Shown here: piece by piece, positions 2,464 to 64,000 of the stretch | How the letters are laid out: each line of letters opens with the position of its first letter | Position numbering within the stretch: the stretch's first letter is position 1 | Assembly: GCA_965197525.1 (NCBI GenBank) | Contig: OZ240211.1 | Coordinates: forward strand, 640,001 to 704,000 | Direction: 5' to 3' | Length of the DNA: 64,000 nucleotides | Source: Nitrosopumilus sp. | Lineage (GTDB): Archaea; Thermoproteota; Nitrososphaeria; Nitrososphaerales; Nitrosopumilaceae | Position numbers and translations under genes: made by a program | Notes under the pieces: model-generated | Databases searched by the model: none | The model's input: the letters and a program-made list of their open reading frames with translations, nothing else | What the model was told of the DNA's origin: nothing

Positions 2464-3751
2464 GGTTCTGTGAAGTTATCGAGGGTTATCTGTTAATCCC
2501 TAAATTGTATAAACCTCTAAACCGTAAGATATTCGTTGAAAGCGATAAAGTCATTATCACAGAAATATACGCCGAACTCTGATCTAATGGATATGATGGC
2601 TATATTCACAAAGATGGTCAATCATTGCATCAAGACAGGATTGAAAGAAGACACTCACAATATGAAGAGGTTGTCCATGTTATGTTATCATGAATTACGT
2701 AATTATGACATCCTGTCTTCATACAAACTAAATGCAATATCACGAGCTGCAGGCATGTTATCAAACAGAAAACAATCAATCAAACGAGGTGTCAGAATAA
2801 GAGACCCAATAGTCAAAAATCCCTTTATGACAAACTGTTACGGTATACAACACAGCGGTGCACTATTAACAATCCCATACAAGAAACATAACCCAATCAA
2901 CATTTTACTCAACGTTCACACCCAAAAAATCCTATCTGATCCCGCCTTGACGGTGCGTTCGTTTTCATTGACTGCTCTGAACATCAGTCTTTGTGTTTCA
3001 AAAACAGTACAAGAGATAGAGTGCACCAATCAAGTGGGAATAGACAGAAACCTAAGAAATGTGACGTGTGGGAACAAGCAAGAGGTGACAGTCTACAAGA
3101 CAAACAAACTGTTATCCATAAAGGAGAACACAATACACGCCAGGGCAGGCTTCCACAGAAATGATCGCAGAAAGAAAGGTCAATTCTGGAAACAAAGACA
3201 GAGACGAATGAGCAATAGAACAAAGCAGTACATCCACAGAATCTCAAAGGATATAGTAGACAACGCAGTCAAAAACAAGACTGCAATCGTCATGGAAAAC
3301 CTGAAAGGAATAAGAAAATTGTACCGAAAAGGAAACAGTCAAGGTAACAAGTACAGGCGTAGATTGAACGGGTGGCAATTCTACGAGTTACAACGCCAAA
3401 TAGAATACAAAGCCCAATGGGTCGGGTTGCCTCCAGTCGAGACAGTAGACCCAAGAAACACGAGCACGCAGTGTCCGCAATGCGGAAAGAGACTCCAAGA
3501 GGACATGCAACAACATCGTAAAATGTCGTGTAATAATTGCGGTTTGTTTATGGACAGGGATATTATCGCTGCCATGAACATATCACGCAAGCTGCCCCCT
3601 AGGTTTAGGGGTAGTAGAGATGACATAGATGAAGCGCAGTCCGGCACTTTTGAGCAGGCGATGACGGAACCCGGCACACCATTGGTAATCCGAATAGTCG
3701 ATATGTCAAAGTCAAGTTATAGGGGTTAACCCTCGATAACTTCACAGAACC
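2464..3751 (+). mobile_element. TnpB-only element with IS6-like terminal inverted repeats, copy 1 (1288 bp, no target duplication)
   Basis: Perfect 25-bp TIR GGTTCTGTGAAGTTATCGAGGGTTA (2464-2488) / TAACCCTCGATAACTTCACAGAACC (3727-3751). Flanks TCAGGGAT and GGGAATAG differ. Near-identical to copies at 37226 and 46452. Confidence 0.9.
2536..3729 (+). CDS. tnpB: TnpB RNA-guided nuclease (copy 1)
   Basis: RuvC-I GIDRN, RuvC-II IVMENL, zinc finger CPQCG...CNNCG, RuvC-III DRDIIAAMNI all intact; TTG start 22 nt downstream of TATAAA. Confidence 0.95.
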   Translation: MKAIKSLSQKYTPNSDLMDMMAIFTKMVNHCIKTGLKEDTHNMKRLSMLCYHELRNYDILSSYKLNAISRAAGMLSNRKQSIKRGVRIRDPIVKNPFMTNCYGIQHSGALLTIPYKKHNPINILLNVHTQKILSDPALTVRSFSLTALNISLCVSKTVQEIECTNQVGIDRNLRNVTCGNKQEVTVYKTNKLLSIKENTIHARAGFHRNDRRKKGQFWKQRQRRMSNRTKQYIHRISKDIVDNAVKNKTAIVMENLKGIRKLYRKGNSQGNKYRRRLNGWQFYELQRQIEYKAQWVGLPPVETVDPRNTSTQCPQCGKRLQEDMQQHRKMSCNNCGLFMDRDIIAAMNISRKLPPRFRGSRDDIDEAQSGTFEQAMTEPGTPLVIRIVDMSKSSYRG

Positions 3752-37225: not shown

Positions 37226-38512
37226 GGTTCTGTGAAGTTATCGGGAGTTAACCCCTAAACTTGACTTTGACATATCGACTATTCGGATTACCAATGGTGT
37301 GCTGGGTTCCGTCATCGCCGGCTCAAAAGTGCCAGACTGCGCTTCACATATGTCATCTCTACTGCCCCTAAACCTAGGGGGCAGCTTGCGTGATATGTTC
37401 ATGGCAGCGATGATGTCTCTGTCCATAAACAAACCGCAATTATTACACGACAATTTACGATGTTGTTGCATGTCCTCTTGGAGTCTCTTTCCGCATTGCG
37501 GACACTGCGTGCTCGTGTTTCTTGGGTCTACTGTCTCGACGGGAGGCAGCCCGACCCATTGGGCCTTGTATTCTATTTGGCGTTGTAACTCGTAGAATTG
37601 CCACCCGTTCAATCTACGTCTGTACTTGTTACCTTGGCTGTTTCCTTTTCGGTACAATTTTCTTATTCCTTTCAGATTTTCCATGACGATTGCAGTCTTG
37701 TTTTTGACTGCGTTGTCTACTATATCCTTTGAGATTCTGTGGATGTACTGCTTTGCTCTGTTAGTCAGTCTTTTCTGTTTTTCCTTGTAGAACTGATTTT
37801 TCTTCCTGCGATCATTTCTGTGGAAGCCTGCCCTGGCGTGTATTGTGTTCTCCTTTATGGATAACAGTTTGTTTGTCTTGTAGACTGTCACCTCTTCCTC
37901 GTTCCCACACGTCACATTTCTTAGGTTTCTGTCTATTCCCACTTTCTTGGTGCACTCTATCTCTTGTACTTTTTTTGAAACACAAAGACTGATGTTGAGA
38001 GCAGTCAATGAAAACGAGCGCACCGTCAAGGCGGGATCAGATAGGATTTTTTGGGTGTGCTGGTTTAGTAAAATGTTGATTGGGTTATGTTTCTTGTATG
38101 GGATTGTTAGTAGGACACCGTTGTGTTTTATGCCGTAACAGTTTGTCATAAAGGGATTTTTGACTATTGGGTCTCTTATTCTGACACCTCGTTTGATTGA
38201 TTGTTTTCTGTTTGATAATATGCCTGCAGCTCTTGATATTGCACATATCTTGTATGTTGATAAAATGTCATAGTTACGTAATTCATGATAACATAACATG
38301 GACAACCTCTTCATATTGTGAGTGTCTTCTTTCAACCCTATCTTGATGCAATGATTGACCATCTTTGTGAATGTACTCATCATATCCATTAGATCAGAGT
38401 TTGGCGTATATTTCTGTGATATTGACTTTATCGCTTTCAACGAATATCTTACGGTTTAGAGGTTTATACATTTTAGGGATTGACAGATAACCCCCGATAA
38501 CTTCACAGAATC
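37226..38512 (-). mobile_element. TnpB-only element with IS6-like TIRs, copy 2 (1287 bp), 8-bp TSD AGATCTGA
   Basis: TIRs match at 23/25; AGATCTGA at 37218-37225 and 38513-38520. Confidence 0.92.
37238..38440 (-). CDS. tnpB: TnpB RNA-guided nuclease (copy 2)
   Basis: Intact D-E-D RuvC triad and zinc finger; near-identical to copy 1. Confidence 0.95.
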   Translation of the reverse strand: MKAIKSISQKYTPNSDLMDMMSTFTKMVNHCIKIGLKEDTHNMKRLSMLCYHELRNYDILSTYKICAISRAAGILSNRKQSIKRGVRIRDPIVKNPFMTNCYGIKHNGVLLTIPYKKHNPINILLNQHTQKILSDPALTVRSFSLTALNISLCVSKKVQEIECTKKVGIDRNLRNVTCGNEEEVTVYKTNKLLSIKENTIHARAGFHRNDRRKKNQFYKEKQKRLTNRAKQYIHRISKDIVDNAVKNKTAIVMENLKGIRKLYRKGNSQGNKYRRRLNGWQFYELQRQIEYKAQWVGLPPVETVDPRNTSTQCPQCGKRLQEDMQQHRKLSCNNCGLFMDRDIIAAMNISRKLPPRFRGSRDDICEAQSGTFEPAMTEPSTPLVIRIVDMSKSSLGVNSR

Positions 38513-46451: not shown

Positions 46452-47737
46452 GGCTCTGTGAAGTTATCAGGGGTTATCTGTCAATCCCTAAAATGTATAA
46501 ACATCTAAACCGTAAGATATTCGTTGAGAGCGATAAAGTCAATATCACAGAAATATACGCCAAACTCTGATCTAATGGATATGATGGCTATATTCACAAA
46601 GATGGTCAATCATTGCATCAAGATAGGGTTGAAAGAAGACACTCACAATATGAAGAGGTTGTCCATATTATGTTATCATGAATTACGTAATTATGACATT
46701 TTATCAACATACAAGATATGTGCAATATCAAGAGCTGCAGGCATATTATCAAACAGAAAACAATCAATCAAACGAGGTGTCAGAATAAGAGACCCGATAG
46801 TCAAAAATCCCTTTATGACAAACTGGTACGGCATAAAACACAACGGTGCACTATTAACAATCCCATACAAGAAACATAACCCAATCAACATTTTACTAAA
46901 CCAGCACACCCAAAAAATCCTATCTGATCCCGCCTTGACAGTGCACTCGTTTTCATTGACTGCTCTCAGCATCAGTCTTTGTGTTTCAAAAACAGTACAA
47001 GAGATAGAGTGCATCAAGAAAGTGGGAATAGACAGAAATCTGAGAAATGTGACGTGTGGGAACGAGAAAGAGGTGACAGTCTACAAGACAAACAAACTGT
47101 TATCCATAAAGGAGAACACAATACACGCCAGGGCAGGCTTTCACAGAAATGATCGCAGGAAGAAAGGTCAATTCTGGAAACAAAGACAGAGACGAATGAG
47201 CAATAGGGCAAAGCAGTACATCCACAGAATCTCAAAGGATATAGTAGACAGCGCAGTCAAAAACAAGACTGCAATCGTCATGGAAAACCTGAAAGGAATA
47301 AGAAAATTGTACCGAAAAGGAAACAGTCAAGGTAACAAGTATAGACGTAGATTGAACGGGTGGCAGTTCTACGAGTTACAACGCCAAATAGAATACAAAG
47401 CCCAATGGGTCGGGTTGCCTCCAGTCGAGACAGTAGACCCAAGAAACACGAGCACGCAGTGTCCGAAATGCGGAAAGAGACTCCAAGAGGACATGCAACA
47501 ACATCGTAAAATGTCGTGTAATAATTGCGGGTTGTTTATGGACAGGGATATTATCGCTGCCATGAACATATCACGCAAGCTGCCCCCTAGGTTTAGGGGT
47601 AGTAGAGATGACATAGATGAAGCGCAGTCTGGCACTTTTGAGCCGGTGATGACGGAACCCGGCACACCATTGGTAATCCGAATAGTCGATATGTCAAAGT
47701 CAAGTTTAGGGGTAACTCTCGATAACTTCACAGAACC
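46452..47737 (+). mobile_element. TnpB-only element with IS6-like TIRs, copy 3 (1286 bp), 8-bp TSD CCAACATG
   Basis: TIRs match at 21/25; CCAACATG at 46444-46451 and 47738-47745. Confidence 0.92.
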
Positions 47738-59961: not shown

Positions 59962-59968
59962 GGTTCTG

Positions 59969-61120
59969 TTAACTTGACGAGTGGTAATTCTTCCTGTTAA
60001 CTGTCGAGGGGTTGGATTTTGAGGCGTTCTGTATAATGGTTAGCCATTTGTTGTTACCCTTGATCTCAATCCCTGCTCTGTCTGCTGGAGTGTCACCGTC
60101 TAAACTCATGTGAGGTCTGATGTAATTGTGATATAATTTGATACCGTCTATTGCAGGCGAGTCATCTTTTTTGAGTCCTCGAAACACTTTCTCACGGTCT
60201 CGGAACTCACCGTTTAACCTCTCTTGGATATTGTTGTTTGCCACTTGGTTTTTGAAATGTACCTCTTTGATATGTTTGCTTGGTTTATGTAAGAAATTCT
60301 TCTGAGCAAACTCTTTTTTGAAAGCGTCATTATACGCTGGTAATCCATCCGTTACAAATACGCGGGGTGTCTTTTTTGCTACTGTTTTACCCATCTTTAA
60401 CAGACTTTGTGCATCATGCTTGAACTTGCTATCAGCTACTTCTTGAGCAATCCAAAAACGTGTCTCGTTGTCCATCATGGCAAACAAATACTTGCGATCA
60501 CCCTTTACTTTAAGCCATACCTCATCCGCATGCCACTTCTCGCCTACTTGTGGGGTTATTGTACTCAGATAATCATCCATAATCTTGATGTATTTTTTGA
60601 CCCATTTGTAAATAGCAACATGAGACATATTGACACCTTGTAATCTTAGAAATTTTTGTACTCCTCTCAGAGATTCACCTGTAAAGTACAACTGCATAGC
60701 TTGTGTAATCATATCAGGTGTGGCTCTCATTCCCTCAAATCCCAAATTTACTGAGAATTTCTTAGAGCATGATTTGCACTTGAATATCTGCAAGTCATAA
60801 TTCTTGTTGTGTCTAACTCCCCATTTGGACACGTCATTAGAACCGCAGAACTGACAAGATTTGACGTCAACAGTTTCAATAACATGTTTCTTTACTTCCT
60901 TGCGTATCTTCAAAGATATTTCTACGGCATGAATGTGTTTACAGCACACCTTACGGAACTGATGATCAGGACATGAGCAACTCCAGCCAAATTCAGTACC
61001 CACCACATCATATAGGGAATCACTGTTTTGGCTTTTGGCCTCGTAGTGTGTATCATTTACTCTCTTGATCTGATCCTGTTTCTCTACTATGGTTTGACCT
61101 CTGGTCTGTCTTGTGTTCAT
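59969..61120 (-). CDS. IS6-family DDE transposase with N-terminal SWIM finger and Zn ribbon
   Basis: CSCPD...CKH SWIM; CQFC...CKSC; WHADE, VTDGLPAY, NNIQERLN triad intact; stop inside the TIR. Confidence 0.9.
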   Translation of the reverse strand: MNTRQTRGQTIVEKQDQIKRVNDTHYEAKSQNSDSLYDVVGTEFGWSCSCPDHQFRKVCCKHIHAVEISLKIRKEVKKHVIETVDVKSCQFCGSNDVSKWGVRHNKNYDLQIFKCKSCSKKFSVNLGFEGMRATPDMITQAMQLYFTGESLRGVQKFLRLQGVNMSHVAIYKWVKKYIKIMDDYLSTITPQVGEKWHADEVWLKVKGDRKYLFAMMDNETRFWIAQEVADSKFKHDAQSLLKMGKTVAKKTPRVFVTDGLPAYNDAFKKEFAQKNFLHKPSKHIKEVHFKNQVANNNIQERLNGEFRDREKVFRGLKKDDSPAIDGIKLYHNYIRPHMSLDGDTPADRAGIEIKGNNKWLTIIQNASKSNPSTVNRKNYHSSS

Positions 61121-61160: not shown

Positions 61161-61261
61161 TGGTGAGTGTGGGATTTGAACCCACGATGTGCTCGTCACA
61201 CAATCGCCTTTCTGAGGCAATCGCTTCAGGGCGACACCTTACCATTCTAGATAAACTCACC
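61161..61261 (-). tRNA. Atypical tRNA: GAA anticodon after splicing a 14-nt BHB intron, long variable arm (Leu-like body)
   Basis: GGTGAGT/ACTCACC acceptor, A73, ATCT/AGGT D stem, TCGCC/GGCGA anticodon stem, BHB helix CTGA/TCAG with AGC and AAA bulges, TGTGT/GCACA variable stem, GTGGG-TTCAAAT-CCCAC T arm. Confidence 0.8.
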
Positions 61262-61528: not shown

Positions 61529-63043
61529 ATGATCTCCAGCAGAGGCAAGTCTTCCTCAATCGGGGGGGGCAGCGCCTCAAACCAGCATCAAGCGGAATCA
61601 AAAACCGAACAATCTTCACAGCAGATAATCTGCCTGTTATGAGAGGTATGGAAGATGAAAGTGTAGATTTGATTTATCTTGATCCTCCGTTCAATTCTAA
61701 ACACAACTATGCTGCACCAATAGGGTCAAAGGCGGCAGGTGTCGAATTTAAGGACACATGGACACTTAGCGATGTGGATGTTGCATGGTGGGGTGAGATT
61801 GCAGAGATCAACGAATCCTTGTATTCGATTATAGGAACTGCTGGCAAAGTAGGAGGAAAATCTACAATGTCGTATCTGATATACATGGCAATTAGGATTT
61901 TGGAGATGCGCAGAATTCTAAAATCAACAGGTTCATTGTACCTGCATTGTGATGCCACTATGAATCATTATCTAAAACTAACATTAGATGCAATATTTGG
62001 TAGTTCGTGTTTCAAAAATGACATAACATGGAAACGACATTCATCCCACAATGATGGTAAAAAATACGGTAGGATTTCGGACTCTATCCTGTTTTATACA
62101 AAATCAAACAAGTATCGATGGAATAAAACACATATTCCATACACAGATGAATTTGTTAAAAAAACATTCAAACATAAAGATGAGCGTGGTAGATTTCAAC
62201 ATCAACCGTTAACAGCTGAAACAAAATCGGGCGGAGGATATGAATATACGTATCACGGACACAGTAGAATTTGGACACACCCTCAGGAATCTATGCTGAG
62301 ACTAGAAGAAGAAGGAAGGGTATATCTTCCTAAAAATAACGGCATACCGAGACAGAAATTTTATTTGAACGAATCGGAAGGAATGCCAATTCAGAATATA
62401 TGGATCGATATTCCCAAGATGTCAGGCAAGGAAAGATTAGGATATCCTACACAGAAACCATTGGCGTTGTTGGAGCGAATAATAGAATCAAGCAGTAGCA
62501 TAGGTGATATTGTGTTTGACCCATTCTGTGGTTGCGCTACAGCCTGTCTTGCAGCAGAGAAACAGGGTAGAAAATGGATAGGCTGTGACATATCTGAAAG
62601 AGCGTACTCGCTGATTGAACTTGCATCCACGTTATCATGATGTACGAGCAGGAAGTGACATATCTGAAAGAGCGTACTCGCTGATTGAACAGAGGCTTAG
62701 GGCAGATGCAGGAATTGCCAAATTCATTACAGGAGCTGGCGAAGTCATACATAGGACTGATATCCCACATAGAAAAGGCAGACGATCCAAGAACATCAAG
62801 CATACGTTATACGGAATCCAGCATGGGTACTGCAACGGTTGTAAATACCATTATCTATTCAAGGATTTGGAGGTAGATCACATCATACCAAAAGCAAAAG
62901 GCGGTCAGGATGATGACAAAAATCTTCAACTACTTTGTGGTAACTGCAACAGACGAAAAGGCGGAAAACTTACCATGACTGAACTTAATGCGGTGCTGGT
63001 TGCAGAGGGCATGAAGTTCGGTAAGGGGCGTTCTGGATCCTAG
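61529..63043 (+). pseudogene. Beta-class N6A/N4C DNA methyltransferase-HNH endonuclease fusion, interrupted twice
   Basis: DPPF and DPFCGCAT motifs; HNH DHIIPKAKGG...NLQLLCGNCN. Frame broken at G8 (61562-61569) and by a 70-bp duplication/insertion; repairing both gives one 481-aa ORF. Currently ORFs 61639-62640 and 62615-63043. Confidence 0.8.
62585..62690 (+). repeat. 36-bp direct repeat - 34-bp unique insert - 36-bp direct repeat inside the MTase-HNH gene
   Basis: GTGACATATCTGAAAGAGCGTACTCGCTGATTGAAC at 62585-62620 and 62655-62690; insert TTGCATCCACGTTATCATGATGTACGAGCAGGAA. Confidence 0.9.
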
Positions 63044-63100
63044 CTCCCGACACTTTCCAGCAAGAGTTAGATCCCGTCAAGTTAACAGAACCAAAAATTT

Positions 63101-63151
63101 ACCCCTCGACAGTTAACAGGAAGAATTACCACTCGTCAAGTTAACAGAACC
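63101..63151 (+). mobile_element. 51-bp remnant of the transposase-3' end of a second IS6 copy in opposite orientation
   Basis: Exact reverse complement of 59962-60012; 8 bp from the main element end. Confidence 0.85.
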
Positions 63152-63540: not shown

Positions 63541-63756
63541 TGTCATCGAATCAACTATAATCTATTCTTTATTGACACGTATGAAGATCAATCAGTAATC
63601 CGAGCTAGTTGTTATTTTAAAATGCTCGTATATTAGCAGAGTAAAAAGCAGTATTTTATCAGAGGGCGTTTGGTAATTTTATCATCTGTCAATTTTCATT
63701 ATGCTATCTGAACATATTATCAGAATCGTGTAGAGAGGACTATAAACAGCTTATAC

Positions 63757-63981
63757 ATTATATAAAGAAGTTGTCAATGAAATTGAAAGTATTATATAAA
63801 GAAGTTGTCAATGAAATTGAAAGTATTATATAAAGAAGTTGTCAATGAAATTGAAAGTATTATATAAAGAAGTTGTCAATGAAATTGAAAGTATTATATA
63901 AAGAAGTTGTCAATGAAATTGAAAGTATTATATAAAGAAGTTGTCAATGAAATTGAAAGTATTATATAAAGAAGTTGTCAA
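63757..63981. repeat. 34-bp perfect tandem repeat, 6 units plus 21 bp
   Basis: Unit ATTATATAAAGAAGTTGTCAATGAAATTGAAAGT; paralogous to 58504-58591. Confidence 0.95.
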
Positions 63982-64000
63982 TAGTGTAAAATGGTCAAAG

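Follow-up and report, generated by a model that had tools for sequence, protein, structure and literature searches.

TnpB elements framed by IS6-type inverted repeats in a Nitrosopumilus genome: very probable mobilization in trans by IS6-family transposases with lineage-specific ends

Six DDE-associated branches of TnpB (DDE-1 to DDE-6), bounded by inverted repeats and accompanied by solo TnpBs with matching ends, are described in the article text of Altae-Tran et al. 2023 (PMC10691335). That article and a 2026 review give IS630, ISL2 and IS1031 as the DDE partners of TnpB; the article text does not mention IS6 as such a partner. The elements described here from a Nitrosopumilus genome resemble these branches, as that text presents them, in that TnpB lies within inverted-repeat ends with its 3' end near the transposon end (the tnpB frame stops 22 bp from the element end, where the criterion for a DDE-associated TnpB is 250 bp). 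They also resemble the solo TnpBs of that text, whose ends are like those of transposase-bearing elements, suggesting mobilization in trans. They differ from the DDE-associated TnpBs in that the arrangement is purely in trans: neither this genome nor 60 relatives nor 15 further loci yielded an element encoding both TnpB and a DDE transposase.

The IS6/IS26 family is described as forming cointegrates by copy-in, without excision, and its published end consensus is GGTTCTG TTGCAAA (PMC6807381), the first 8 nucleotides of which equal the start shared by the IS6 transposon and the TnpB elements considered below. The family has long-transposase clades with zinc-finger N-terminal extensions, its reviews list one passenger-carrying member, ISDsp3, and two MITEs, and Harmer and Hall doubt the membership of the archaeal and long forms. 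IS1341-group TnpB-only elements and the guide-RNA-only derivatives of IS200/IS605 share with the present elements a non-autonomous, multicopy character, TnpB as the sole gene, stand-alone guide-RNA derivatives and a motif in the 5' flank, but they have asymmetric hairpin ends, make no duplication and are moved by Y1 transposases, whereas the present elements have symmetric repeats and 8-bp duplications in a genome in which no Y1 transposase was found. Fanzor, like the present TnpB, is an RNA-guided nuclease carried as cargo by duplication-making DDE transposons, with a nuclease motif tied to the insertion site; it is, however, eukaryotic or viral, is carried by transposons of other superfamilies and has a motif that overlaps the duplication, whereas the present motif is placed immediately beyond the 8-bp duplication.

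The window analyzed here is a stretch of 64,000 nucleotides from a 2.21-Mb genome assembled as a single contig (99% complete). Near one edge it holds an IS6-type transposon with the following features, in window coordinates:
59962–60021, forward strand: terminal inverted repeat on the 3' side of the transposase gene, a 60-nt arm 93% complementary to 63092–63151
59969–61120, reverse strand: IS6-family transposase of 383 aa with SWIM, Zn-ribbon, HTH and DDE domains (D199, D258, E300)
61161–61261, reverse strand: intron-containing tRNA gene with a tRNA-Leu-like 3' part, lying 40 bp upstream of the transposase start
61639–62640, forward strand: N6/N4 DNA methyltransferase part of a methylase-HNH gene, 77% identical to an intact 475-aa fusion
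62580–62690, forward strand: 70-bp tandem duplication that splits the methylase-HNH frame
62660–63043, forward strand: HNH nuclease part of this passenger gene, 95% identical to residues 349–475 of the intact fusion
63073–63092, reverse strand: inner right end, 19/20 against the left end and colinear with the end of a paralogous element at genome position 920354
63100–63151, reverse strand: outer right end, a duplicate that repeats the first 51 nt of the left end exactly, in inverted orientation

A sequence-only reading of the window had delimited this element as 59962–61120, a span that contains a genuine end and the transposase gene; it holds only that one end, and the unit bounded by inverted repeats extends to the inner end at 63092 or the outer one at 63151, a length of 3131–3190 bp. 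The end GGTTCTGTTAACTTGACGAG occurs at 59962–59981 on the forward strand, inverted at 63132–63151, and once more with one mismatch at 63073–63092. The right end is doubled (63041–63151), with two tandem terminal segments of ~52 nt placed 59 bp apart. All of the first nine bases of the ends (GGTTCTGTTAAC...) agree with the IS6/IS26 consensus (9/9), including the GG start and the G at position 7, and the transposase stop codon falls within the terminal repeat at 59962–60021; GG...G7 repeats, an HTH and DDE transposase and a stop codon inside the repeat are features shared with IS26 and IS257. The transposon departs from the compact form of the family (0.7–0.9 kb, one gene, a transposase of 213–254 aa) in its length of 3.1 kb, its passenger genes and its 383-aa transposase with added SWIM and ribbon modules. 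It also lacks the 8-bp target duplication of the family, its flanks being GCCGGACT and, opposite, AAAAATTT or TCATACTG, whereas the TnpB elements and sister IS6 elements do carry such duplications, which are perfect in IS6_c and IS6_f. Since the transposon is present in a single copy and has no duplication, it gives no sign of recent activity.

The 383-aa protein matches DDE_Tnp_IS240 (PF13610) at 53 bits against a cut-off of 27, and Pfam also finds the SWIM domain in the same reverse-strand frame (59969–61120). Its by far top family match is the NCBIfam IS6 profile (NF033587), at 120.6 bits against a cut-off of 125 and over profile positions 1–200 of 202. The intact DDE triad, SWIM domain and Zn ribbon that had been read from the sequence were all borne out in an alignment with seven relatives (three paralogue-type sequences and four public homologues), in which the SWIM ligands C48/C50/C60/H62, the CxxC...CxxC ribbon C89/C92/C115/C118 and the catalytic residues D199/D258/E300 are invariant. 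About 4,900 homologues were found at E<=1e-20, the named ones being IS6 family transposases of Nitrosopumilus or Nitrososphaerota, and the enzyme is thus ordinary for its archaeal group; a search of the PDB gave no sequence relative. The gene is the intact IS6-family transposase of a 3.1-kb IS6-type transposon with passenger genes.

Between the transposase and the right ends, the cargo includes a 56-aa ORF and the split methylase-HNH gene. A colinear paralogous element at genome 920354–923763 has this fusion intact at 475 aa (L058:3404-4831), and the cargo looks like a restriction-modification-like load on an IS6 chassis. The transposon-borne tRNA has an intron of 14 nt and is typed Phe-GAA by ARAGORN, although its variable arm is long and its 3' part resembles that of tRNA-Leu; intron-bearing tRNAs were missed by ARAGORN in default mode and recovered by Rfam and the intron mode. 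The junction of tRNA-Leu and transposase leader persists as a remnant at 615 kb (genome 615040–615200), and a second tRNA-Leu adjoins the element IS6_g (genome 2002247–2002334). At the window edge, 63740–63985 is a tandem array of about six copies of a ~34-bp AT-rich unit.

Elsewhere in the window lie three TnpB elements of one subfamily, here subfamily A:
2464–3751, forward strand: duplication-free TnpB-only element between perfect 20-nt IS6-type ends
37226–38512, reverse strand: TnpB-only element with the 8-bp duplication TCAGATCT, preceded by TTG
46452–47737, forward strand: TnpB-only element with the 8-bp duplication CCAACATG, preceded by TTG

The repeat GGTTCTGTGAAGTTATCGAG frames all three at identical boundaries, where none would be expected by chance. 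Their TnpB scores 127.5 bits against NF040570 (cut-off 100) and 74.7 bits against PF07282, and its RuvC motifs GIDRN, MENL and DRD align with Cas12f/TnpB structures. The genome contains 33 repeat-bounded TnpB elements in about ten subfamilies, with TnpB proteins 76–100% identical across elements (at least 80% for most, 60% for a single outlier), as well as 11 guide-RNA-only MITEs that keep just the last ~270 bp of the element. Every one of them (33 + 11) begins with GGTTCTGT, and each TnpB subfamily has its own variant at repeat positions 9–16. The retained 3' region has a conserved RNA fold (compensatory changes in 11 of 47 pairs, z = -3 against shuffles) and has no match in Rfam even at E<=1. 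The subfamily A copies of this genome are 98–99% identical and must therefore have moved recently.

Perfect 8-bp duplications flank 21 of the 33 TnpB elements and five MITEs. The other 12 copies have none, an absence attributable to recombination between copies, which swaps their flanks. In the genome G330 (OZ245003.1, 1.32 and 1.45 Mb; L063/L065), inverted TnpB copies carry reciprocal halves of the duplications TAGAAACT and TTATGTTA, an arrangement characteristic of a ~126-kb inversion by recombination between the copies. A chimeric element of 655 bp, not flanked by a duplication, was also observed at genome 780991–781645; its left end is of the window transposon's type (34/40), and a TnpB 3'/guide-RNA fragment bearing a TnpB-type end makes up its right part.

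From the likeness of the two kinds of end, the sequence-only reading had proposed that the window transposase or a close paralogue mobilizes the TnpB elements in trans. The likeness itself was confirmed at 16/20 with the first 8 positions shared, the differences falling at positions 9, 12, 15 and 16. It does not discriminate among resident enzymes, because the first 8 nucleotides are the family consensus and the window TnpB end also matches the resident IS6_c and IS6_a ends at 15/20 each; in these alignments it is a family-level resemblance. The genome has seven IS6-type DDE loci, of which five have intact frames, one lacks a start codon and one is frameshifted. A closer match involves one of them: the ends of TnpB subfamily C/G equal those of IS6_c at 19/20, an element of 1970 bp at genome 746475–748444 with the duplication CTATTGTG. 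A 460–480-aa IS6-type DDE protein at genome 1596155–1597597, ~30% identical to the others and with no recognizable GGTTCTGT ends nearby, may be domesticated or very old.

In this genome, no IS6 element was found with a terminal repeat equal to the subfamily A end, which the sequence-only reading had suggested looking for; scanning 300 genomes of the order for the end pattern did recover one in a congener. This autonomous IS6 (G253:C22:11587-13845; 2259 bp, perfect 30-nt repeats, 26/27 to the subfamily A ends) is the only autonomous element found with ends of the window TnpB type. Its transposase is 39% identical to the window enzyme and 47–48% identical to IS6_c and IS6_d. Overall identity was rejected as a guide to end specificity, since the IS6 paralogues are domain mosaics (genome 584840–585988 and 922592–923728; L045) from which specificity cannot be read in this way: IS6_d has a SWIM region like that of the window enzyme (85%) and a DDE core that is not, and IS6_a, which has no start codon, has a catalytic half almost exactly as in the window enzyme. 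Compared module by module instead, the SWIM, ribbon and HTH modules of the G253 enzyme are closest to IS6_c (51–58%) and its DDE core to IS6_d (58%); for the window enzyme the corresponding identities are 30–41% (DNA-binding modules), 39% (DDE core) and 51% (short C-terminal tail). In no module is the window enzyme the nearest to the G253 type; it is the farthest in the SWIM domain and the C-terminal tail and within 1–4 points of the farthest in the ribbon, HTH and DDE modules.

Across the species compared, end type tracks transposase lineage and is stable. IS6_c-like enzymes of 65% identity in two other species keep the GTAATCTTCG end type. In G330 (OZ245003.1), an 89% orthologue of the window enzyme has an end of the window transposon's type (29/30) ~0.5 kb downstream, and decayed remnants of G253-type transposases (84% and 65–72% identity) lie 30–50 bp from GAAGTT(A/G)T-type ends; TnpB copies of subfamily A number at least 13 in G330. 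The constancy of end types within a lineage from species to species implies specificity, and because end type follows lineage, the cognate lineage of the window TnpB ends would be the G253 type, not that of the window enzyme. The proposed pairing with the window enzyme or a close paralogue thus runs against the lineage-specific ends and against an end-cognate transposase that is only 39% identical to it and nearer to other paralogues, while the broader part of the proposal, an IS6-type helper acting in trans, is upheld by the ends and the 8-bp duplications. In one further genome, the 70-contig draft G284, at least seven copies of the exact subfamily A end occur at contig edges, in a genome that gave no TnpB match and whose transposases reach at most 47% identity to the G253 type, an arrangement that fits relaxed end specificity. 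The cargo between subfamily A-type ends in this draft (L049) includes a 92-aa Cys-rich ORF.

The TnpB elements had also been expected to occur together with IS6 transposases, and genomes with TnpB elements do carry them. Close TnpB relatives (above 60% identity) occur in only two of 60 related genomes, G021 and G004, both with IS6 matches, and many of the 60 have IS6 without TnpB. Distant TnpBs with GGTTCTGT-type ends are found in G054, G039, G040 and G002, of which only the 180-contig draft G040 has no IS6 match. This co-occurrence is consistent with a trans helper without being proof of one, the sample being small and the genomes related.

Each TnpB element consists of a TnpB gene and a guide-RNA scaffold between inverted repeats of IS6 type, and IS6-family DDE transposases supplied in trans would insert it and generate the 8-bp duplications. 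Subfamily C/G carries the ends of the resident IS6 at genome 746475–748444, the window's subfamily A those of a lineage found intact only in the congener G253, and the window enzyme represents a third lineage, whose conserved end type differs from both. The TnpB elements are very probably non-autonomous passengers moved in trans by an IS6-family transposase, by far the best explanation given the IS6-type repeats, the 8-bp duplications, the near-identical ends shared with autonomous elements and searches of the genome that found no Y1 or serine transposase. That the cognate partner of subfamily A is another IS6 lineage, and the window enzyme, as a member of the third, at best a cross-acting helper, is the reading we favor and consider reasonably likely.

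The recent burst of subfamily A was most likely driven by a cognate IS6 since lost from the chromosome, and next most likely by cross-action of a resident paralogue; either the cognate has disappeared or lies off the chromosome, or a resident enzyme acts across end types. Because subfamily A moved recently and its cognate is absent from the assembly, some resident non-cognate enzyme, possibly the window transposase, may have acted, and cross-action is kept alive by the G284 ends, the chimeric 655-bp element and the domain-mosaic transposases. One candidate is the IS6_c/IS6_g lineage, which would then be the present helper of subfamily A in addition to its matched subfamily C. It has three copies, two with perfect 8-bp duplications, and so was recently active in this genome; in the SWIM, ribbon and HTH modules no other enzyme of the genome comes nearer to the G253 enzyme (51–58%), and the first 9 nucleotides of its ends are common to the subfamily A ends. 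We nevertheless regard this as unlikely, as the match over the repeat is just 15/20 and the lineage's own end type is constant across species.

It is quite unlikely that the window transposase or its 79%-identical paralogue (genome 584879–585982) is the working helper, recognizing the core GGTTCTGT..TT..CG.G despite four mismatches. The enzyme is intact with near-perfect repeats, its 16/20 match is the best among intact resident IS6 ends, no cognate enzyme exists in the genome despite recent subfamily A activity, the chimeric element unites an end of its type with a TnpB module, and G330 has both its 89% orthologue and many subfamily A copies. Yet the margin of that match over IS6_c is one base and its first 8 nucleotides are family consensus; each lineage retains its end type from one species to the next, likeness to the end-cognate G253 enzyme is low in the DNA-binding modules (30–41%), the transposon is single-copy without a duplication, and the 79% paralogue lacks a start codon. 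Finally, that no IS6 enzyme is involved, these being ordinary IS200/IS605 or IS607 TnpB elements or copies spread by recombination only, with an incidental resemblance of ends, is very improbable: TnpB does usually ride on IS200/IS605 or IS607 (PMC10691335) and 12 of the 33 copies have no duplication, but perfect inverted repeats with 8-bp duplications are absent from IS200/IS605 and IS607, Y1 (PF01797) and serine (PF00239) transposases were not found in this genome in searches whose positive controls worked, the TnpB ends are near-identical to autonomous IS6 ends, and the copies without duplications show the reciprocal flank swaps expected from recombination between copies.

An rve/IS481-like transposase was also considered as helper and rejected, as the relatives of this enzyme in the genome are bounded by distinct TGT... 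ends and flanked by 14-bp duplications. In the genome G222 (L046), subfamily A-type GATTCTGTGAAGTTATCGGG ends that lack a duplication enclose a broken transposase of this kind, which may be a nested insertion. In the Nitrosopumilus genome itself, an rve/IS481-like IS of 1429 bp, unrelated to the IS6 elements, is present at 1731382–1732810 and ~1925085–1926518.

When the elements were oriented by tnpB and the three bases directly before the left 8-bp duplication were scored, W-T-R was found in 26/26 duplication-bearing TnpB/guide-RNA elements of this genome and in 7/7 from three other species (33/33 overall), against a background frequency of 8.8%. The motif adjoins the duplication with zero spacing in all 33, and no mirror motif was found on the right flank of these elements. 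Autonomous IS6 elements have it on 1 of the 14 sides of seven duplication-bearing insertions, which is about background, and a distant TnpB lineage (33% identity) has TTT in its place. The guide read out through the right repeat consists of the duplication and the right flank. At an empty site the motif stands right before the guide-matching sequence; at an occupied site only ...ACC precedes that sequence, or the match is limited to 8 nt. Motif, guide and the geometry of empty and occupied sites fit a TAM, and W-T-R thus looks like the predicted TAM of the TnpB nuclease. The simplest explanation of the motif is a homing filter that acts after insertion. That TnpB instead picks the insertion site directly, recognition of W-T-R positioning the IS6 transposase for a staggered cut at the next base, is improbable; if true, the system would be a DDE transposon assisted by its nuclease, and not a passenger on which homing acts as a later filter.

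The usual view is that TnpB earns its keep by restoring transposons that have excised. Since IS6/IS26 elements are described as copying in without excision, restorative homing of this kind does not apply to them, and a large, recently active TnpB population on IS6 ends challenges the restoration rationale. Our results turn the idea of a helper into defined pairs, IS6_c with subfamily C within one genome and the G253 IS6 with subfamily A across genomes, for which the window enzyme serves as a mismatch control. The one-sided motif beside the duplication constitutes a direct prediction of the TAM of the nuclease, and suggests that homing or target choice shapes where copies delivered by DDE transposases persist.
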